Source of the DNA: a virus
IMG/VR virus record: IMGVR_UViG_3300045988_168302
Location: 1-42,096 of that record
Direction: 5' to 3' (one strand)
DNA length: 42,096 bases
The position numbers were made by a program, and so were the translations under genes. Shown here piece after piece: positions 3,357 to 42,096 of the stretch; the first letter of the stretch is position 1, and every line of letters starts with the position of its first letter. The notes under the pieces were generated by a model. That model made no database searches and had not been told where the DNA came from. It worked only from the letters and a program-made list of their open reading frames with translations.

Positions 3357-5927
3357 ATGGCAGGACCTAATAATTTTTATGTAATACAGCCAAATTGTGC
3401 TGGCGGTGAAATTAGTCAAGACGTTGCAAGTAGGATAGATTTAGATAAATATTCTATGGCATTACTACAAGCAGAAAATGCAGTAGTACGTCCTTATGGT
3501 TCTGTACAAAAGCGAACTGGAACGATTTTTTGTGGAGAAACTAAGTATGCCGACAAAAAATCTATTCTAGTTCGCTTTGATTTTACTGTAGAGCTTTCCT
3601 ATATGTTAGAAATTGGCTACAAATATATTCGCATATGGAAAGGCAATACATACTTAAATAAGGAACTTGCAACGCCATTTGAAGAAGCAGATTTGCCAAA
3701 TTTAAGATTTGTACAATCTGTAGATGTAGTTTATATCACCAGTGGAAAATATCCAGTCAAAAAGCTTATGCGATATGCAGAAGATGATTGGCGAATTGAA
3801 GATATGGAATTTTACCCACCTGCTTTTGGTGATTTAAATAAAGATGAAGATAATTACCTTACACCGTCAGGCACAACAGGAACGATAGACATAACAGCTA
3901 CTAAAGATACTTTTACAGCAGATATGGTAGGCAATTGGATAAAAATAGAACAACGTATCACAGGTAAGACAGTAAATAATACAAATGCACAAAATGAAGA
4001 AACAAGAATATCAGGAGAATATGGAACTTATAAAATATGGAGTATAGAAATAACAGGTTCATGGGAAGGTGAAGTAAAAATACAAAAAAATGATAATGGA
4101 ACATGGACAGATTTCAAAAGTTATAAAAGTAATAGCAATGAAAGTGGTAATGGAAACTATATATTTAGAATTGTAATTAAATTAACTTTAGGAAATTGTA
4201 ATGTAAGATTAGGAACAATATTACAGGGCGTTTTTGAAACAGAATATTTTAGAGATTTTGGGTTTACTAAAAAAGATGGATTAATAACAGATTCTATTGT
4301 CATAGGTGATACATGGAAAATAATCACTCATGGTACATGGAGTGGTAGCGTTATTATAGAAAAATCTGTAGATAATGGTGCTACATGGCTACAAGAAAGA
4401 CAGTATACAAGCAATGATGACTATAATCCTACAGAAAGTGGAAGTGTAGAAGAATATTGTCTTATGCGATTGGTTTTAAATGTAACGAGTGGAAGCTGTA
4501 AAGCGGATTTATCTAGCTATCCATATACACATACTGGATATGCAAAAATAACGGAATATACAAATGCTAAACAAGTAAAAGCACAGGTACAAAGTAGTAT
4601 AAGTATGTTAGGTTCTACAGAAAAAACAATTGATTGGTATTTATCTGCATGGAGCAAGCAAAATGGATATCCAAGGTGTTGTATGTTTTTCCAAGATAGA
4701 TTAGTATTTGCAGGCTCTACAGCTAAGCCTTCACGTATTTGGCTTAGTAGAACTGGAGATTATGGAAACTTTTCTGTAGATAAAGAAGCAGGAACTGTAA
4801 CAGATGATAGTGCTATAACAGCAGATTTGATTAATCTTAAAGCATATACCATAAAGCATGTAGACGCAGGTAATGATTTGATGGTAATGACGGAAGGCAA
4901 TGAGTGGAGTATATCTGGTGGTGAAACAGTAACACCGACTAACATCACCCCACGAAATCAGCAAAACTATGGCTGTAATGATACTATTCCTGTGCGTGTG
5001 AGCAATAGAATTGTTTATGTACAAAGACGAGGTAGCATAATTCGTGATATGGGATATAGCTACGATACAGATAGTTATATTGGCATGGATTTAACGCTAC
5101 TGGCAAAACATCTTATTCGTAATCACGAGATAAGCTACAGCACTTTTACACAAGAGCCTGATAGTGTGCTGTACTTCGTGCGAGATGATGGAGTTTTAAT
5201 TTGCTTAACTTATGTACCTGACCAAAAAGTATATGCATGGTGGCATATAGTAACAGATGGAAAAATAGAAGCTATAACATCTACAGCACAGGCAAATAAT
5301 GATGTTATCTATGCAGTAATCAATCGCACTATAAATGGGCAGACAAAAAGATATATAGAGCAATTTGTCGTGGAAAATAACAGCACATATCAGCAGGACC
5401 ACATAATGACAGATTGCACAAAGATATATTCTTTTGAAGAAGCAACAACTGAACTTACTGGACTTGAACATCTTGAAGGAAAAGAAGTCTATGTAATGGC
5501 TGATGGTTATTTGCTAGATAAAATGACTGTAGCTGAAGGTAAATTAAATTTACCAAAAGAAACTAAAAATGCTTATGTAGGACTACCTTATACCATGATA
5601 ATTGAACAGCCTAATTTTGATATGACAACGCAAGATACAGGAACAATGCAGGCAAGAAAAAAAGCAGTGCAAAAATGTATCTTACGTTTACAAAATTCTT
5701 ATGGTGGCCATGTAGGAGCAAATAAAGATTGTTTAGATGATATACGATATGACAATGAGTACATGCAAATAGATGATGAAAGCAAAATACTTTATAGCGG
5801 AGATTTAGAAATCCCTATTCGTGGCGGATTTAATAATGAAGGAAGAATATATATAAAACACGATACACCATATTCTTTTAGTGTATCAGCAATAATAAGG
5901 AGTGTTACCCTTGGCAGTAGTCAATAA
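3357..5927 (+). CDS. Tail tubular protein B (nozzle), T7 gp12-like.
   Basis: 856 aa. It follows the gp11-like gene in T7 order. The N-terminal region resembles gp12 and the protein is beta-rich. Confidence 0.65.
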   Translation: MAGPNNFYVIQPNCAGGEISQDVASRIDLDKYSMALLQAENAVVRPYGSVQKRTGTIFCGETKYADKKSILVRFDFTVELSYMLEIGYKYIRIWKGNTYLNKELATPFEEADLPNLRFVQSVDVVYITSGKYPVKKLMRYAEDDWRIEDMEFYPPAFGDLNKDEDNYLTPSGTTGTIDITATKDTFTADMVGNWIKIEQRITGKTVNNTNAQNEETRISGEYGTYKIWSIEITGSWEGEVKIQKNDNGTWTDFKSYKSNSNESGNGNYIFRIVIKLTLGNCNVRLGTILQGVFETEYFRDFGFTKKDGLITDSIVIGDTWKIITHGTWSGSVIIEKSVDNGATWLQERQYTSNDDYNPTESGSVEEYCLMRLVLNVTSGSCKADLSSYPYTHTGYAKITEYTNAKQVKAQVQSSISMLGSTEKTIDWYLSAWSKQNGYPRCCMFFQDRLVFAGSTAKPSRIWLSRTGDYGNFSVDKEAGTVTDDSAITADLINLKAYTIKHVDAGNDLMVMTEGNEWSISGGETVTPTNITPRNQQNYGCNDTIPVRVSNRIVYVQRRGSIIRDMGYSYDTDSYIGMDLTLLAKHLIRNHEISYSTFTQEPDSVLYFVRDDGVLICLTYVPDQKVYAWWHIVTDGKIEAITSTAQANNDVIYAVINRTINGQTKRYIEQFVVENNSTYQQDHIMTDCTKIYSFEEATTELTGLEHLEGKEVYVMADGYLLDKMTVAEGKLNLPKETKNAYVGLPYTMIIEQPNFDMTTQDTGTMQARKKAVQKCILRLQNSYGGHVGANKDCLDDIRYDNEYMQIDDESKILYSGDLEIPIRGGFNNEGRIYIKHDTPYSFSVSAIIRSVTLGSSQ

Positions 5928-25256: not shown

Positions 25257-25289
25257 AAAAAAAGACTACCTTATTTGGTAGTCTTTTTT
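25257..25289. terminator. Bidirectional terminator at the 3' end of the minus-strand gene.
   Basis: aaaaaagactacc-ttattt-ggtagtctttttt. The stop codon of the minus gene lies in the loop. Confidence 0.75.
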
Positions 25290-26824
25290 ACTCTAGTACA
25301 CCCACATGATTTACTATAACCATTAATTACATAAGATTTATTGAATTCCTTTATATTGCCACAATCACATTTACAGACAACTCTATTTTTACCTAGTTCT
25401 TTTATAATGGTGAGATGATTAAATTTTTGCCCTGTTCTATCTATAATACTTTTTGTTTTCCTCAAACATCCGCATGATTTTGTATGACCGTTAATAACGT
25501 TGTTTTTTGCTGTTTCAATGATATTCCCACAATCGCAACGACAACGAACTTTTGTTGTATTATATCCTTTAGAGTCTTTTACGTAAAATTCTTCTAATAC
25601 AGTAAGGGAATTAAATTTTTTACCTATTATATTTTCTGTAATGCGTTTTATTTTTATGGTTTTATAAGGGCAGTTTTTATCACCACAATATTTTTTTTCC
25701 TCTAAAATCACATCTTGTTTTTTAGCTTCAACAATGTTGCCACAATCACAACGGCAAATAACTTTTGTCTTATAACCACCATTTTCCTTTATAATGGTGA
25801 GGTGATTAAATTTTTTACCTATATAAGATTTAATTTTAGGGCCTCTAGTTATGCATCCACAAGATTTTGTGTTGCCACTAACTATTGTTGATTTTTTTAA
25901 TATTTTTACGTTTCCACAATCACATTTACAAAGAACTTTATCGCCGCCTAGCTCTTCTAATATAGTGAGCATGTTAAATTTCTTACCTACATAAGATTTA
26001 CGAACTTGTGTTTTTTTATTAGCAAAATAGTTTCTTATAATAGGAAGGAAATATTTCTTTTCTGCTTCTTTTCGAGCTTTAATGGCTTCTTCTTTAGTAT
26101 CAAATTTCCCTAAAGAAATTAAAGTATTACTGATACCAATTTTAGCCTCCCATTTATTCAATTTAGGGCGGAAAAATACTCCGTTTATTCCGCTTTTATT
26201 ATTTTTAGCAAGCTTCCTATTGCTTATAAGCTTTATATTAGTACAACGTATACTAAATTTTTTTAAACCATTATGCATTTTATCTGTTCTGGATTTATTA
26301 GCGCATAAATTACATGAGGTGGATTTATGATGTGTTAAATTTGCTGTTAAAACTATTGTTGTATTACCACAACTACATTTGCATAACCATTTTACTGGCT
26401 TATTTTGTATTTTTTTTATAACTGTAAGATTGCCAAAAACTTTTCCTGTTAAATCAATAAAGTTCGGATTTTCTTTAGAAATACATCCACAGTCTTTTAT
26501 TGAACCATTAATCACACGGTCTTTTCTTAAAATTTTTTCATTGCCACAATCACAACGGCAAAGAATTTTGTTTTCTCCAAGTTCTTTAATAATGGTAAGA
26601 TGATTGAATTTTTCTCCTTCTTTATTATCGATTTTGTATTGTCCACTATTAATAAATTCATAACGTTTGCACCCACAGGATTTTGTTTTTCCTGTTTTAA
26701 CTTTATATTTATCGTATTCCTTAACTGTTCCACAATCACAGCGACAAATAATTCTATTATTACCTAATTCTTTTATAACTGTAAGATAGTTAAATTTCTG
26801 TCCTGTTAAATCTATAAATTTCAA
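25271..26824 (-). CDS. Protein of about eight tandem Cys-rich modules ([F]xxLTVIKELGxNKxxCxCDCGNxK...GxTKSCGC) around a central AP2/ERF-type DNA-binding domain.
   Basis: The AP2 consensus SGINGVFFRPKLNKWEAKIGI..SLGKFDTKEEAIKARKEA lies at about 26050..26210. TTG start at 26824 has a perfect SD aaggagtg 6 nt upstream. The in-frame ATG at 26878 has no SD. Confidence 0.65.
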   Translation of the reverse strand: MKFIDLTGQKFNYLTVIKELGNNRIICRCDCGTVKEYDKYKVKTGKTKSCGCKRYEFINSGQYKIDNKEGEKFNHLTIIKELGENKILCRCDCGNEKILRKDRVINGSIKDCGCISKENPNFIDLTGKVFGNLTVIKKIQNKPVKWLCKCSCGNTTIVLTANLTHHKSTSCNLCANKSRTDKMHNGLKKFSIRCTNIKLISNRKLAKNNKSGINGVFFRPKLNKWEAKIGISNTLISLGKFDTKEEAIKARKEAEKKYFLPIIRNYFANKKTQVRKSYVGKKFNMLTILEELGGDKVLCKCDCGNVKILKKSTIVSGNTKSCGCITRGPKIKSYIGKKFNHLTIIKENGGYKTKVICRCDCGNIVEAKKQDVILEEKKYCGDKNCPYKTIKIKRITENIIGKKFNSLTVLEEFYVKDSKGYNTTKVRCRCDCGNIIETAKNNVINGHTKSCGCLRKTKSIIDRTGQKFNHLTIIKELGKNRVVCKCDCGNIKEFNKSYVINGYSKSCGCTRVKKTTK

Positions 26825-26904
26825 ATTACTCACTCCTTGATAGATAATCAAAGATAAGCTATAATATTTACAGCTCATCTGATTAATAGAAACATTAGAT
26901 GTAA

Positions 26905-26941
26905 GGGCATTTACTAGGGCATTAGTAAATGCTCTTTTTTT
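26905..26941 (+). terminator. Hairpin gcatttacta-gggcat-tagtaaatgc followed by a T-run, with the conserved loop AGGGCATT.
   Basis: 10-bp perfect stem followed by tcttttttt. Confidence 0.6.
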
Positions 26942-27079
26942 ATTATATCACTTTATTTACCTAAATAATACTATAAAAATAATATAAAATCAATATAATT
27001 ATAGAATATAATAATTATAAAAATGATATAAAAACACTTAAATAAAAGAAAAAGCCGATATTTTGATATCGACTTTAGT

Positions 27080-27108
27080 TTGACAATATATTTAATTTAA
27101 TATATTAT
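27080..27108 (+). promoter_or_regulatory. Sigma70-like promoter, TTGACA-17-TATTAT, pointing into the noncoding structured region.
   Basis: Perfect -35 and near-consensus -10 with 17-nt spacing. No ORF lies downstream before 28010. Confidence 0.5.
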
Positions 27109-27112
27109 AAAG

Positions 27113-27630
27113 GTGTAAATAATTTGACAATTTAATAAAAAGTTTTTAGAAATAAAAAAGACCAAACGTGTTACCAGCACGATTGGTCTTGCCGAACAAC
27201 CTACCACTAATAAGTTGTCCGAGTAAATTTCTAAACTCATTATAGGCAATTTTAAACGATATGTCAACGATATATCGCAAATTTTAATGATTTTAGGTAG
27301 GAATAGTAGGCACATTTACATTTTTCCCATGTGGGAATGATGATAAATGTGTTTTTTTAGTATCTAAAATCAGGTATGGGAATAAACCATATCAGCGTGC
27401 CATGATGCTTATTCATGGAAAGCGAGAGCTACACTTGGCAAGGTGTATAAACTAGGATTGCAGAAAGTAATCCACTGTATCGTCAGCAGAGGCAGGGAAA
27501 TCGGCGGGGCATTTGGATATATTCTACTATCCAAATTTACCTAAGAGGGCGGAATGTCGTTAAACTCCCTTAATAAGCCTAACCTATTATATAAATTGCA
27601 AATCAGAGCCGTTTTAAGGCTCTTTTTTTA
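27113..27630 (+). ncRNA. Candidate structured noncoding RNA of about 0.5 kb, promoter-driven and terminated at 27603..27630. Its class is unknown.
   Basis: No plausible ORF. GC content is well above the genome background. Multiple hairpins (27160..27195, 27524..27549). Terminator agagcc-gttttaa-ggctct-ttttttt. Confidence 0.35.
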
Positions 27631-28009
27631 TGCGGTTAATATAATTGTATGGTTAAAAGTAGACGACGGTGGTTAAAGCAATTTTAGATTGCAGATTGGG
27701 ATTGCAGATTTTATCTGTAAGCCGTATTAGGATAACATGTGGAAACGCATGGCGGTTGGGGCAATGAGGTAACCGTTAAAAATCCTACCTGTGTAAAAGC
27801 AGGGACTAGTAGAAAGCTGGACTGGACGCAAGAAAACCAGGCGAAAAAAAATATAGTTATATCTTTAGTAAACTGCTAAAGGTATAACTATATCTAGAAC
27901 ACGGTTCCGCAATCCTCCCAAGCGTAATCTTTTTTGAGTTAGAAGTAAAGCCAAAGTTAGTGCCTAGTTTAAATAAATTTATATACACCAATAGAAAGAA
28001 GGTGAGTAG

Positions 28010-28198
28010 ATGCCAACGATAAAAGAAATAAAAGCTATAGCAAAAGATAGAGCTGTAGTACTACCAAAGAAAGCAAAAAAAGCAGATATGATACATATAT
28101 TGCAGAAGCAAGAGGGAAATAATCCTTGTTATGCAACTAAACAATGTAATATAGATGTGTGCCTTTGGTATAAGGATTGCCAAAAGGCAATAAAATAA
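28010..28198 (+). CDS. Small protein with a Rho_N/SAP-like N-terminus and a Cys-rich tail.
   Basis: IKEIKAIAKDRAVVLPKKAKKADMIHIL fits the Rho_N pattern. RBS gaaggtg. Confidence 0.4.
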   Translation: MPTIKEIKAIAKDRAVVLPKKAKKADMIHILQKQEGNNPCYATKQCNIDVCLWYKDCQKAIK

Positions 28199-28229
28199 GG
28201 AGCTACTAAAACAGTAACTCCTTTTTTTA
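28197..28229 (+). terminator. Rho-independent terminator.
   Basis: aaggagctac-taaaaca-gtaactcctt followed by ttttttt. Confidence 0.6.
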
Positions 28230-28286
28230 TAATCAAATTTGCGTTCCGACTATTAGATATGAAATTTGTATTTATTTGAAAATAGC

Positions 28287-28673
28287 TCATGAATTTTGGA
28301 CGTCGTTCATCACGACTTGAAGAATAAAATTATTTACACTTCGGTCTTGTTTTTGAGCTTCTTCTTTTACCTTGATATATAAATCCATATCAAGATTTAA
28401 ACATATTTTACCTTGTGGTTTAAATAGTTTTTCTACATCATTAAGCTCATTGTACATATTCTTTTTTAAAGTCTGTTTGATGTATCCTGTTACTGTTCTG
28501 CCTACGCTAGTAGCTTTATCTTTTAGACGAGTTTTTATTTCTTCTGTAACATAGAGAAATACTGTTTTTTTAGTATTTCTTGTAGGTGTTGGTATTGGTT
28601 TTTCAATTTTATCTTCGATCGGTTTTTTTTCTGTGAAAAATTCCGATGCTACAGTGAATTTTTTATTTGCCAT
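28287..28673 (-). CDS. Tandem ribbon-helix-helix protein, a likely ParG/CopG-like centromere-binding partner of ParA.
   Basis: Two beta-strand plus helix-helix units (KKTVFLYVTEEIKTRLKDKATSVGRTVTGYIKQTL and KICLNLDMDLYIKVKEEAQKQDRSVNNFILQVV). It overlaps the end of parA by 11 nt. Confidence 0.5.
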   Translation of the reverse strand: MANKKFTVASEFFTEKKPIEDKIEKPIPTPTRNTKKTVFLYVTEEIKTRLKDKATSVGRTVTGYIKQTLKKNMYNELNDVEKLFKPQGKICLNLDMDLYIKVKEEAQKQDRSVNNFILQVVMNDVQNS

Positions 28674-29379
28674 AATTTATTACCTCGTTAACGAAACTTT
28701 TATAATCTCGACCAGCATTACTATATTTTGCATAGTCGAAAATATTTTGTTTTAAATTTTGAGCTTCTGGAATAGCTACACATTCTCTTATTTGAGTATC
28801 AAAAACTCTTGTTCCATAATCAACTGTTTTTGATTTTAGCTCTTCTAATATATTTTGGGCTATTATAGTTCTAGCTTTAAATCTAGTTAGAAGAACACCC
28901 ATTATTTTTACTTGCACCTTTTGTATTTTTTCTATCAAGATATTTATACCCTGTGCAGAAAAAGTATCTGCGTGGGCAGTGATGATTATATAATCACTGG
29001 CACATAAAGCATTAATTGTAGTAATGCCTAGTGCTGGAGCTGTATCAATAATGATGTAGTCATATTTATCTTTTATGGGCATGAGTAAATCGTGCAAGAT
29101 AAATTCATATCCTGCACCACCTTGAATTTTTACAATATCAGGCGAGCCAGCAATCATATCGTTTTTGATACACTGATCTACAGCTGTTTCTTCTGTGAGC
29201 ATATCGAAAATATTATACTTATTATTCATGCAATTTTCTGCATTAGATAAATTGCATTGTGAATCTAGGTCAATTAGCAAGACTTTCTTTTTATAAAATT
29301 TTCTAAGTCCTGCTGCTAGGTTTTGGGCAGTAGTAGTTTTACCAACTCCGCCTTTTTGGTTTACAATACTAATTATCAT
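28663..29379 (-). CDS. parA: ParA/Soj-family partition ATPase.
   Basis: Deviant Walker A motif IVNQKGGVGKTTTAQNLA. 238 aa. RBS ggtgg. Confidence 0.85.
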   Translation of the reverse strand: MIISIVNQKGGVGKTTTAQNLAAGLRKFYKKKVLLIDLDSQCNLSNAENCMNNKYNIFDMLTEETAVDQCIKNDMIAGSPDIVKIQGGAGYEFILHDLLMPIKDKYDYIIIDTAPALGITTINALCASDYIIITAHADTFSAQGINILIEKIQKVQVKIMGVLLTRFKARTIIAQNILEELKSKTVDYGTRVFDTQIRECVAIPEAQNLKQNIFDYAKYSNAGRDYKSFVNEVINYGK

Positions 29380-29466
29380 AATTCTACCACCTTTTTAATA
29401 TAATTATACCATACAATTAATTATAAAATATAGTATTATTATATTTTATTTATAATATTTTTATAA

Positions 29467-29509
29467 CAAAAAAGGATATTACCAGGGCATTAGTAATATC
29501 CTTTTTTTA
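29467..29509. terminator. Bidirectional terminator with the conserved loop cagggcatta.
   Basis: aaaaaa-aggatattac-cagggcatta-gtaatatcct-ttttttt. Confidence 0.7.
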
Positions 29510-31564: not shown

Positions 31565-31598
31565 GAAAAGACCACCATTAATGGTGGTCTTTTTTTAT
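31565..31598. terminator. Bidirectional terminator.
   Basis: aaaag-agaccacc-attaat-ggtggtct-ttttttt. Confidence 0.75.
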
Positions 31599-32086
31599 GC
31601 TCTGTTTTCTATGGTATCGTCGATAATATTTGTAGTAGTGGAAGCTGTATATTCGTTTTTTCCCTCTGCTACTTTTAATTCATTGGCTACCTGATTAAGC
31701 TTTTCGTCGTAAGTTTTTTCTTCATCAGAAGGACTTACCATAGCTTTTAAAATAGAAACAAAATTTTTACGCTGAATTTTAGGAAGATTTATATAGCTTT
31801 TTATAATTGATAATTCATCTTCATCTAAATCGAATTCTTTTACTAGGTCATTTATAATATTTTTTTCTGTAGTTTGATAAACTTCACCAGTACCATTTAA
31901 TATCCATTCTTTATTAATAGAATAAATATCACAAATATGATTTATTAATAGTTCTTTTGGCTCAACTCGATTTAGTTCAATATTTGCTATTACGTATTTA
32001 CCTACCCCCAAACGTTCACCAAATTCTTCTTGGTTTAAATTTTTTTCTTTACGAATAAACTTTATTCTTTCTTGTATAGTTTTCAA
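31595..32086 (-). CDS. XRE-family HTH repressor, CI-like, with a C-terminal oligomerisation or sensor domain. TTG start.
   Basis: The HTH is NLNQEEFGERLGVGKYVIANIELNRVEP. SD gaggtg 5 nt before TTG 32086. It is divergent from the early operon across palindromic operators. Confidence 0.7.
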   Translation of the reverse strand: MKTIQERIKFIRKEKNLNQEEFGERLGVGKYVIANIELNRVEPKELLINHICDIYSINKEWILNGTGEVYQTTEKNIINDLVKEFDLDEDELSIIKSYINLPKIQRKNFVSILKAMVSPSDEEKTYDEKLNQVANELKVAEGKNEYTASTTTNIIDDTIENRA

Positions 32087-32107: not shown

Positions 32108-32136
32108 ATAATACTAGGTCTATAAATTGTTGTCAA
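32108..32136 (-). promoter_or_regulatory. Leftward sigma70-like promoter for the repressor gene (-35 TTGACA inside operator 1, 17-nt spacer, -10 TATTAT).
   Basis: Minus-strand reading gives ttgaca acaatttatagacctag tattat. Confidence 0.55.
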
Positions 32137-33075: not shown

Positions 33076-33978
33076 ATGTCTTATGTTAAGAAACAGACAA
33101 GTATAAATAATGATAATATCTTGGAGATATATTACACCAAGAAATTACCTGTAAAGAATAATATAAGAAGCCCAAAAATGGGACTTACTCCTTTGGCACA
33201 AGAAGAAGTGAATAACAAGAATTCTATAAATTTGTTAAGGCTTCTTATTTTAAATAATTTTGGTGATGGGGATTTATTTCTATCTCTAACTTATAAAGAT
33301 AAGAAAGAGGAAAATAAAAAAGAACCGACACCAGAAGAAGCGAAAAAGCATTTGGCTAATTTTAGACAGAAGTTAATTCGTTTCTATAAAAAGAAAAATG
33401 CTGTAGTGAAGTATATATTTTGTACGGAATGTACTTCAAAACAGCAAAGAATACATCACCATTTGCTTTTAAAAGTTGAAGGTTGTGATGTAAATCCAAC
33501 AGATATAAAAAATCTTTGGGGACATGGTTTCGTATCTGTAAAAATCTATGGCGGACAAATAACAGATGCCGAAGACCTCGCAAATTACATGGTGAAGAAA
33601 AAGAGAAATGCTTTCTTCACTGCTCCAGGAGTATTCAAAAAAAGGTATAACGCTAGTAAAAACTTGGAAAAACCGCAAGTTACTAGCGTTATTGTGCGTA
33701 GGAAATATTGGCTAAGAGAACCAAGAATTCCGAAAGGATATATGCTGGACAAAAACAGTCTTATAAATGGTATTTATACATTTGGTAATGGAGAAAGCGA
33801 TTATGAATACCAATTTTATAGATTAATCAAGATTGATAAACCTGCAAGGCGAATAAACTTGCAGGAAAAAGTGAAAGCTAAAAGAGTTAAAAAAGAAATC
33901 TACTTTACACATAATCTAAACAAAATAGATTTCTTAATAAAATACAAAAAGCCTAGAGCCGAAAGCAATACGAGCTAA
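33076..33978 (+). CDS. rep: Rolling-circle replication initiator (HUH endonuclease Rep).
   Basis: Motif 1 FLSLTYKD at ~33274. Motif 2 IHHHLLLKV (HUH) at 33455..33463. Motif 3 LANYMVKKK with the catalytic Tyr at 33586. Confidence 0.7.
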   Translation: MSYVKKQTSINNDNILEIYYTKKLPVKNNIRSPKMGLTPLAQEEVNNKNSINLLRLLILNNFGDGDLFLSLTYKDKKEENKKEPTPEEAKKHLANFRQKLIRFYKKKNAVVKYIFCTECTSKQQRIHHHLLLKVEGCDVNPTDIKNLWGHGFVSVKIYGGQITDAEDLANYMVKKKRNAFFTAPGVFKKRYNASKNLEKPQVTSVIVRRKYWLREPRIPKGYMLDKNSLINGIYTFGNGESDYEYQFYRLIKIDKPARRINLQEKVKAKRVKKEIYFTHNLNKIDFLIKYKKPRAESNTS

Positions 33979-39338: not shown

Positions 39339-39369
39339 TCTTTAGAAATTTAGAAAGAAGGTGAATGCT

Positions 39370-39588
39370 ATGTGTACAGGCGGAGGCGGTTCAACTACCG
39401 TACAAAAATCAGATCCATTGCCAACACAGGTAACGGACGTTACAACATCTACTACATCAGCCCAACAACAGGCAAATACTAAACAACGTAAAAAACGTGG
39501 TATTTCTTCAAATTATTTGAGTGCAGATAGAAATACTACGCTAGGAGAATTAGTAAGTAATGCAACAGGCAGACAAACATTAGGGTGA
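39370..39588 (+). CDS. Small hypothetical protein.
   Basis: RBS gaaggtg 6 nt before ATG 39370. Rich in Thr, Ser and Gln. Confidence 0.4.
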   Translation: MCTGGGGSTTVQKSDPLPTQVTDVTTSTTSAQQQANTKQRKKRGISSNYLSADRNTTLGELVSNATGRQTLG

Positions 39589-39592
39589 TAAA

Positions 39593-41960: not shown

Positions 41961-42096
41961 ATGCAAAACTATATCAGTGTGAAAATGGTAAAAGCTGAAC
42001 CTTGCAAAGCATGGAAAGACTTCAAAGGTCATAAAGAAGGTGATGAAGGATATAAAATTTATTATCCTGATGGTTATGTATCTTGGTGTCCTAAAG
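41961..42096 (+). CDS. 5' part of the wrap-around ORF that continues at 3..659.
   Basis: RBS agagggg. The frame runs open to the window end. It is in frame with 3..659 across the duplicated 54 nt. Confidence 0.5.
   Translation, partial: MQNYISVKMVKAEPCKAWKDFKGHKEGDEGYKIYYPDGYVSWCPK

Follow-up and report, generated by a model that had tools for sequence, protein, structure and literature searches.

Comparative analysis of a 42,096-nt viral DNA sequence (IMG/VR record IMGVR_UViG_3300045988_168302, positions 1 to 42,096; hereafter the window, by which this whole stretch is meant) indicates that the region 27080-27935 is non-coding and carries a conserved RNA module. The module lies within the interval 27080-28009, flanked by a leftward gene for a 535-aa AP2/Cys-repeat protein and by a 62-aa open reading frame (ORF). 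It is predicted to comprise a folded sense RNA (RNA1), a small RNA transcribed from the opposite strand across the RNA1 leader, and a second folded domain (RNA2). From the comparison of related sequences we are highly confident that these RNAs are real. Regarding function, the module is tentatively read, by analogy with known systems, as an antisense-controlled, RNA-based replicon of a plasmid prophage, a reading to which somewhat less than an even chance is given. A preliminary description of the window had proposed that this region may specify a large structured RNA without coding function and has a promoter and a terminator of its own, and it is found here to be conserved and covarying in relatives. 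The antisense RNA and the linkage to partition (par) genes are both new relative to that description. The predicted features of the module are as follows.

27080-27108, plus strand: sense promoter TTGACA-17-TATTAT (11/12 match), with a predicted start near 27115
27115-27630, plus strand: RNA1, predicted non-coding transcript of ~516 nt, with leader (target of the antisense RNA), folded core, variable linker and terminator
27148-27232, plus strand: RNA1 leader, fully complementary to the antisense RNA
27239-27267, minus strand: antisense promoter TTGACA-17-TATAAT (-35 at 27267-27262, -10 at 27244-27239)
27150-27232, minus strand: predicted antisense RNA of ~83 nt, with stem-loop 1 (SL1, 27222-27192), stem-loop 2 (SL2, 27190-27159) and a U-run (27158-27151) as terminator
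27288-27571, plus strand: folded core of RNA1, helices 2-12, marked by covariation and strand-specific G-U pairs
27288-99/27361-72, 27309-15/27347-54, 27373-79/27387-93 and 27400-05/27413-18, plus strand: core helices, first group
27431-36/27441-46, 27475-78/27486-89, 27492-96/27502-05 and 27506-08/27540-42, plus strand: core helices, second group
27511-19/27528-36, 27545-49/27567-71 and 27555-56/27561-62, plus strand: core helices, third group
27382-27412, plus strand: candidate kissing contact between the loops of helix 4 (27382-27385) and helix 5 (27409-27412)
27605-27630, plus strand: intrinsic terminator of RNA1, stem 27605-27623 followed by T7, conserved
27640-27935, plus strand: RNA2, second folded domain of ~290 nt
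27688-27702 with 27915-27929, plus strand: closing helix of RNA2 (type A), followed by U6 (27929-27934)
27851-27868/27876-27893, plus strand: long AU-rich hairpin of RNA2, conserved

Predicted structures of RNA1, the antisense RNA and RNA2

The fold of RNA1 was obtained with RNAalifold and an explicit pair count from 29 aligned, distinct sequences of gut phages whose identity to the window is 71-95%. It contains 80 pairs in 13 helices, with standard pairing in 99.5% of 2316 cells, and 25 pairs display changes on both sides. The covariation score of 0.334 was reached by 0/500 shuffles. In controls with the 3' partners shifted by 1-3 columns, pairing was ~40-52%, with 1-6 double-change pairs and a score of ~0.05. 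Single stems are found in three or four variants with full compensation, as illustrated by stem 27373-79/27387-93, for which GGTATGG/CCATATC, CTTGGCG/CGTCAAG and CCTGAAG/CTTCAGG are observed. When read on the plus strand, helices 2-12 are 99.8% paired with 265 G-U cells, compared with 85.5% and 0 G-U on the minus strand; with the terminator included, 291 G-U cells are found on the plus strand and 0 on its complement. The strand-specific G-U pairs, together with the drop in pairing on the minus strand, indicate that the plus strand is the folded molecule. Furthermore, the minimum free energy (MFE) of 27115-27635 (plus) corresponds to z = -7.55 against shuffled sequence. The preliminary description had called the region highly structured and had suggested covariation analysis with related phages. 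The first point agrees well with this z-score and with that of -4.23 for the RNA2 region, and the outcome of the second is strongly positive.

Similarity to the window starts exactly at the -35 hexamer (27080) in almost every relative, implying that the promoter is the left edge of a conserved, exchangeable module. This promoter had been reported beforehand as perfect. The TTGACA-17-TATTAT site is indeed present at 27080-27108, though at 11/12 it is near-consensus. Its -35 element is invariant and its -10 element keeps TAnnnT in 29/29 homologues; sites of at least 11/12 number 7 in the whole window, with 3.7 expected. At the other end, the terminator earlier described as clean is confirmed as a conserved stem and T7. 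Its helix (helix 13) is 98% paired on the plus strand and 85% on the minus strand, the pairs undergoing one-sided exchanges from G-U to A-U or G-C.

Within the core, long single-stranded blocks are invariant, and among the 10 closest sequences 48 nt do not vary. A contact between the loops of helices 4 and 5 (L4/L5) is suggested by four central pairs that are kept in 29/29 sequences (one with the states AU:20, UA:6, GU:3, another with AU:24, GU:5), compared with 20-64% pairing in shifted controls. Support for this candidate kissing contact is moderate, with few independent events, since the A-U to U-A double change traces to a single clade. A long-range helix, GCCGA (27191-95)/UCGGC (27499-503), appeared in the single-sequence MFE structure and in a 10-sequence RNAalifold prediction and was lost in distant clades. 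It was dropped, and its 3' side instead makes a local hairpin (helix 8) with a compensatory change of its own.

The earlier view that the interval holds no credible ORF was upheld. Plus-strand ORFs in 27080-28009 do not exceed 46 aa, no ORF on either strand, including a 72-aa minus ORF, keeps its start, frame or length across the homologues, and the ORFs of the interval have no significant Pfam or PHROG match. A recurring MILGR... start yields peptides of 17-59 aa with unrelated tails. With no conserved ORF and no Pfam/PHROG signal, a protein-coding reading was rejected; as judged from the alignment, selection acts on base pairs, not on codons. The GC content had been described as much higher than that of the genome. 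An elevation is present, the cores reaching 38.5-39.1%, in the top ~4% of 500-nt windows, but "much" was an overstatement, the interval having 35.0% GC versus 32.0% for the window. Other intergenic stretches mostly have 16-27% GC, and two, 1013-1359 and 39339-39592, reach 37-38% (36.9% and 38.2%).

The first ~120 nt of the module behave differently from the remainder, being shaped by a fold of the minus strand, whereas the rest is shaped by a fold of the plus strand. Such opposite-strand folds are the signature of an overlapping sense/antisense pair and are hard to square with a single-stranded DNA (ssDNA) element. The antisense promoter is the sole 12/12 consensus site in the whole window. 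Its hexamers are invariant in 29/29 sequences, and the spacer varies in sequence while keeping a length of 17 nt (16 in one sequence). For the part of RNA1 that contains the antisense -10 box (27239-27244), no pairing is predicted. The predicted antisense RNA spans RNA1 positions ~+35 to +118 with complete complementarity, and its features are conserved in 26-29 homologues. SL2 covaries, with 6 compensatory pairs, and is followed on the minus strand by the invariant T-run TTTTTTATTTCT; SL2 and TTTTTTATTTCT together are a predicted intrinsic terminator, on the minus strand only. The fold of two stem-loops has z = -6.3 in the window; in three diverse relatives the values range from -5.8 to -7.0.

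SL1 is 99.7% paired with 77 G-U cells in the minus-strand reading, compared with 75% in the plus-strand reading. Its 3' arm is the complement of a 17-nt block of the RNA1 leader, TTGCCGAACAACCTACC (27189-27205), which is invariant in 29/29 sequences. The block occurs once in the window, where 0.02 matches are expected and where no trans target for it was found. The 5' arm of SL1 varies by transitions only, which swap A-U or G-C for G-U, so that pairing is preserved only as minus-strand RNA. Taken as a prediction, a small RNA of the minus strand with its own promoter and terminator is present. Its stems and loops are the most variable part of the module and occur as discrete compensated alleles, which look like determinants of specificity or incompatibility.

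Downstream of the RNA1 terminator, a stretch of ~300 nt is non-coding in all relatives and falls into two sequence types. For type A, which is window-like, 80 pairs are predicted, 11 of them compensatory, and pairing is 99.0% on the plus strand (213 G-U) versus 83.4% on the minus strand (2 G-U). Type B has 73 pairs, 8 compensatory, with 97.9% versus 84.0% paired and 104 versus 3 G-U cells on the plus and minus strands, respectively. In the window, the MFE of 27636-28009 gives z = -4.23 on the plus strand versus -1.37 on the minus strand. Both types contain the 5' AUGGUUAAA, a CUGUGUARAAGCAG hairpin, the long AU-rich hairpin (27851-27893) and a G-rich/C-rich closing helix, after which the U-run is plainer in A than in B. 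A type-B profile detects a type-A copy with nhmmer E = 1.2e-6, and by this match the two types are homologous. The hairpin (27851-27893) and the T-run (27929-27934) to which attention had been drawn previously are present and conserved. No convincing promoter was found between the RNA1 terminator and RNA2, and RNA2 is probably reached by read-through from RNA1.

Rfam 15 was searched with the whole window and six relatives at the gathering score, and with 26850-28250 in E-value mode up to 10. Nothing was found at the gathering score in the window or the six relatives. The lone match with E < 0.1 is that of the hairpin 27847-27929 to rli36, at 31 bits (cutoff 50), and the others are weak. The preliminary description had named ROOL (RF03087) and GOLLD (RF01998) as possible classes; neither matches at the gathering score in the window or the six relatives, nor at E <= 10 in 26850-28250. 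Its suggestion of a c-di-GMP or other riboswitch likewise finds no Rfam riboswitch match.

Relatives and genomic setting

Nine IMG/VR contigs were reached through the 62-aa protein, and human-gut assemblies were added by protein-neighbour look-ups and one DNA-pattern scan of metagenomes. Of two pattern scans of genome collections, the first returned none, and the second one contig of a metagenome-assembled genome, labelled "uncultured Bacilli", that carries the module. Each locus contains exactly one copy (nhmmer). RNA1 and RNA2 have no BLASTN match in cultured phages (INPHARED) or plasmids (PLSDB), and the lone match in these sets is the 62-aa gene on a Megamonas plasmid. As far as these sequences extend, the RNA family is confined to one human-gut phage lineage.

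Linkage to the par genes is strict. In 40/40 fetched loci with at least 1.7 kb of flank, the ParA gene lies 0.8-5.5 kb downstream of RNA1 and is convergent with it; the 14 loci without ParA all have less than 1 kb of flank. In some linked loci ParA is down to 37-62% identity, while RNA1 stays at 71-95%. RNA1 and RNA2 are absent from 78 other ParA-bearing viral contigs (nhmmer). From these loci, the module appears as part of the maintenance backbone of a human-gut phage lineage. No initiator protein is conserved next to par. In one relative (L028) nothing is located between the genes for ParA and the CI-like repressor, and such gap-free junctions in some relatives indicate that no initiator is conserved beside par. 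Scans with Rep and TerL, which bear on sharing of the HUH Rep and of packaging genes among RNA1 carriers, recovered close relatives only. The genes to the right of the module in the window are listed here.

28010-28198, plus strand: 62-aa HeH/LEM-like, Cys-rich ORF (weak Rho_N/HeH match; named "HeH/LEM domain protein" in one source)
28287-28673, minus strand: ribbon-helix-helix (RHH) ParG-like protein (ParG, Arc and HicB RHH matches)
28663-29379, minus strand: ParA ATPase (Pfam AAA_31 at 2.7e-41, CbiA, ParA)
28287-29379, minus strand: partition operon (ParA and ParG-like protein), convergent with RNA1 and RNA2
31595-32086, minus strand: CI-like helix-turn-helix repressor
33076-33978, plus strand: HUH/rolling-circle-type Rep, in a rightward operon adjoining the CI-like repressor

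The ends of the window are identical over 54 nt (1-54 = 42043-42096), and from this exact overlap the window is seen to be a complete circular genome of ~42.0 kb. It belongs to a podovirus of low GC (32%), described overall as epsilon15/T7-like: the capsid protein is epsilon15 GP7-like, TerL is ~52% identical to that of epsilon15-like phages, and a portal, a T7 gp14-like internal protein and a radical-SAM protein are also encoded. No integrase was found among the scanned ORFs of the window, and no tRNA or tmRNA was found. ParA, the ParG-like protein and the CI-like repressor, in the absence of a detectable integrase, suggest a temperate phage that is kept as a plasmid, the lineage probably consisting of plasmid prophages. 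The sole Rep is of the HUH type and is encoded 3.7 kb beyond parA, at a distance of 5 kb from the RNA module. GC skew tracks the direction of transcription and does not place an origin.

The 62-aa ORF is a neighbour outside the RNA unit. In type-B loci, what comes after RNA2 varies: a GIY-YIG gene, an FRG gene, a cluster with an AAA ATPase, a 106-aa ORF, or a membrane-protein gene in convergent orientation. The HeH gene of these loci is located past parA. The earlier idea of a leader, taken as one dedicated to the gene at 28010, was rejected: the downstream genes vary, RNA2 precedes unrelated or convergent genes in relatives, and the HeH gene is relocated in type-B loci. On the Megamonas funiformis plasmid NZ_CP048628.1 (L057, locus 4358-5210), an HeH homologue with 72.6% nucleotide identity stands directly after a serine recombinase/resolvase gene. 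This position implies that the small protein may have a role in plasmid maintenance, and the plasmid copy points to a Negativicute as a possible host. The phage probably infects a low-GC gut Firmicute, possibly a Negativicute such as Megamonas. An accessory slot with variable content, placed between RNA2 and the partition genes, is observed in six loci (L034, L036, L041, L043, L046 and L048), with GIY-YIG nuclease-like and FRG-domain proteins, an AAA ATPase with partners, and a Sel1-repeat or membrane protein; it looks like a hotspot for defence, anti-defence or moron genes.

On the left side, the 535-aa gene (25271-26878, minus) is divergent from RNA1, and its product has ~8 tandem Cys-rich repeats (...CxCDCGN...SCGC...) around a single AP2 DNA-binding domain. 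The stretch 26837-26945 (plus) has a promoter-like TTGATA-17-TATAAT site (11/12) and, behind it, a 15-bp hairpin (26903-26936) with a T-run, which could yield a small RNA of ~70 nt antisense to the 5' end of the 535-aa gene (start 26878). A 30-nt copy of this hairpin, 80% identical, is present at 29479-29508, upstream of parA. The RNA1-RNA2-HeH-ParG-ParA cassette is flanked by AT-rich repeats at 26972-27050 and 29397-29466 (38 nt, 82% complementary), possibly centromere-like sites. Clear iterons are located upstream of parA in relatives (L001, 7338-7572; L020, 7524-7796, with three ~88-nt repeats). To the left of the module, parS-like repeats are present in the window and perhaps in L020, and none are evident in L001 or L008. 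In the clade L020-L024, the region left of the RNA1 promoter (for example L020 1710-4807, minus) encodes ArdA (anti-restriction) and SSB, with VbhA/Fic further on, a gene content reminiscent of the leading region in conjugative plasmids. Promoters with a near-consensus 11/12 match are clustered in the maintenance/immunity region at 26.8-32.2 kb, among them those at 32136 (minus), 32169 (plus), 30467 (minus) and 29945 (minus); the back-to-back pair 32136/32169 beside the CI-like repressor is probably a genetic switch.

A possible plasmid replicon and rival explanations

The sense/antisense layout and the par linkage lead us to propose a replicon, by the logic of ColE1 and of certain mycobacteriophages. 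RNA1, maybe read through into RNA2, would be the pre-primer or origin transcript for replication in the plasmid state. By binding to the leader of RNA1, the short and abundant antisense RNA would set copy number and incompatibility, and the HUH Rep of the early operon would serve lytic replication. Under such a scheme, the compensated alleles of the antisense stems and loops would fit selection for new specificities.

Several points weigh against this proposal. Function is inferred at every step. In ColE1, transcription of the sense RNA continues into the origin, where a persistent RNA-DNA hybrid is made; RNase H then cleaves the RNA, and Pol I elongates it. RNA1, by contrast, stops at a strong conserved intrinsic terminator (27605-27630), so that priming would need read-through or a termination-coupled mechanism. 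The element-encoded HUH Rep might itself suffice for plasmid replication. No DnaA boxes (with at most one mismatch) and no origin-like DNA motifs were found in 26.8-28.3 kb, and the AT-rich stretch upstream sits outside the conserved module. Moreover, an 11-helix core with invariant single-stranded blocks and a possible kissing loop seems to exceed the needs of a simple primer. The orientation also differs from that of the mycobacteriophage origins, which, according to passages of PMC7157519, are upstream of parA and divergent from it, whereas RNA1 is downstream of the par operon and convergent.

Such an elaborate fold recalls a different possibility, an "ornate" RNA made up of RNA1 and RNA2 that would act in trans on a host or phage target and represent a new class of the kind of ROOL, GOLLD, OLE and raiA. 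The RNA would fold and perhaps multimerise, its action being, for example, that of a scaffold, a sponge or an anti-defence factor. Only its level would be tuned by the antisense RNA, and the position beside par would be a convenient slot with expression in lysogeny. The large conserved multi-helix fold and the invariant single-stranded blocks fit this explanation well, and the candidate loop-loop contact could be intra- or intermolecular. A promoter and a terminator are also part of the module, which is not tied to particular downstream genes and adjoins the variable accessory/defence-like slot, and there is precedent for large phage-borne RNAs of unknown function. We nevertheless regard it as unlikely: the module shows no likeness to any such family, it is confined to one phage lineage, and the 100% par linkage and the copy-control-like antisense layout would be left unexplained. 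An equally low probability is given to the broader claim that the RNA1 core and RNA2 represent an undescribed class of large tertiary-structured RNA with a role beyond that of a passive primer. Possible examples of such a role are an initiator of replication that is free of protein and either recruits host enzymes or provides a primer end by self-processing, the toxic half of an all-RNA addiction module restrained by the antisense RNA, and a ROOL/GOLLD-like RNA-only assembly through intermolecular L4/L5 kissing.

Rather more doubtful is a long cis-acting leader, in which the promoter would drive RNA1, RNA2 and the accessory genes, gated by two terminators (27605-27630 and the U-run 27929-27934), and the antisense RNA or a ligand would shift RNA1 folding to control read-through by attenuation or antitermination. 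Antisense-driven attenuation is known for plasmids of the pT181/pIP501 type. Convincing promoters were found neither between the RNA1 terminator and RNA2 nor between RNA2 and the next plus-strand ORF, and in many relatives plus-strand genes begin 30-100 nt past RNA2, both of which speak for such a leader. However, these downstream genes are mutually unrelated, and in L036 the next gene is convergent, leaving nothing there to regulate. The antisense target is ~400 nt from the terminator, with a variable linker between core and terminator, unlike known attenuators or riboswitch platforms, and no riboswitch model matches.

The layout of a long structured sense RNA with a short antisense RNA, from a stronger promoter, over its 5' part and within a plasmid-maintenance region, would also suit an addiction (post-segregational killing) module. 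A stable and harmful RNA1, encoding a tiny peptide or being itself an RNA toxin, would be neutralised by unstable antisense RNA, on the model of hok/sok and further type I loci or of the all-RNA type VIII systems. This explanation is improbable, given that no toxin ORF is kept in frame, length or sequence on either strand, unlike in hok/sok. The preliminary description had listed an antitoxin-type RNA among its options; an antisense partner close to that idea was found, but no toxin ORF.

Very improbable is an element acting at the DNA level as a structured ssDNA site, for instance the single-strand origin (sso) used with the rolling-circle HUH Rep: an HUH-type Rep is encoded on the plus strand, and single-strand origins are long, non-coding regions of strand-specific hairpins in which G-T pairs are tolerated, yet one displaced strand cannot explain a leader structured on the minus strand with a core and RNA2 structured on the plus strand, and the module has conserved duplex-type sigma-70 promoters and hairpin/T-run terminators in both directions, at 5 kb from rep.

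Phage-plasmids are common in gut bacteria, and replication in the prophage state without a recognisable plasmid initiator is largely unexplained. In the literature searched, RNA-based prophage origins have been demonstrated only for mycobacteriophages. The module provides a sequence-defined, testable candidate in low-GC gut bacteria, with exact coordinates for RNAs, promoters and terminators, and 29 diverse homologues with strong covariation are enough for founding new RNA families and for designing mutational, incompatibility and vector work. If it is not a replicon, it would add a new member to the large structured RNAs of phages, one that unusually has its antisense partner built in and is relevant to RNA structure and function. 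Its interest rises if the RNA1 core has a function of its own.

Comparison with known systems

What is new is the lineage, together with a sense RNA that is unusually large and well conserved; the architecture is known from antisense-controlled plasmid RNAs and RNA-based prophage origins. According to PMC7157519, replication of ColE1 is primed by RNA II, and copy number is set by RNA I, which is complementary to the 5' part of RNA II. The likeness is close in layout: an untranslated folded RNA of ~0.5 kb from a constitutive promoter, an antisense RNA of ~80-110 nt from a stronger internal promoter over the 5' ~100 nt, with stem-loops and its own terminator, and no adjacent initiator gene. RNA1 corresponds to the long untranslated sense RNA with its own promoter, on sequence and conservation only, and the ~100-nt antisense RNA with its own promoter and terminator is matched by a prediction. 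The gene for a ~62-aa protein downstream in the window is a superficial echo of Rom/Rop. The differences are that RNA1 ends in an intrinsic terminator, that the antisense RNA has two stem-loops, not three, and that the host would be a low-GC gut bacterium and the element a 42-kb phage that also encodes an HUH Rep. Homology to the ColE1 RNAs is not indicated by Rfam, which includes RNAI and gave no match, or by PLSDB, in which RNA1 has no similarity, so that the module is at most an analogue, not a family member.

The mycobacteriophages offer a comparison at the level of the whole element. Passages of Wetzel et al. 2020 (PMC7157519) describe parABS phages that mostly lack repA and have ~600-bp non-coding, transcribed origins beside parABS, and assign RNA-based prophage origins to the non-RepA phages RedRock, Alma, LadyBird, Gladiator and Et2Brutus. 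As far as these passages go, the elements are alike in being, in the present case probably, temperate phages without integrase that par keeps as plasmids, with an ORF-free, apparently transcribed region of ~0.6-0.9 kb between the late genes and par. The window accordingly has a non-coding region beside par, on the late-gene side, and no integrase was found in it; the orientation relative to parA is different. No sequence similarity was detected between them, and the two have hosts of different phyla and unlike GC content. In Alma and LadyBird the region has been deleted from the phage. The same passages do not mention structure or an antisense partner for the mycobacteriophage origins.

With R1 (CopA/CopT) and with pT181/pIP501, the module shares a small stem-loop antisense RNA, a strong promoter and a leader RNA as target. 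The inferred YUNR-like loop in SL1 (UUAG, UUUG or UUCG) is a further likeness. In those plasmids the target is the leader of a rep mRNA, whereas here no rep follows and the terminator is 400 nt from the target. The hok/sok and type I systems are similar in having a long folded sense RNA with a short antisense RNA over its 5' region, in the maintenance region of a plasmid-like element. Finally, ROOL and GOLLD resemble the module in being large (0.5-0.8 kb), with many conserved helices, their own promoter and terminator and unknown function, and in being phage-borne, often in Firmicutes phages. RNA1 and RNA2 differ from them in having no adjacent tRNAs, in their cis-antisense partner, in their strict par linkage and in a far narrower distribution.

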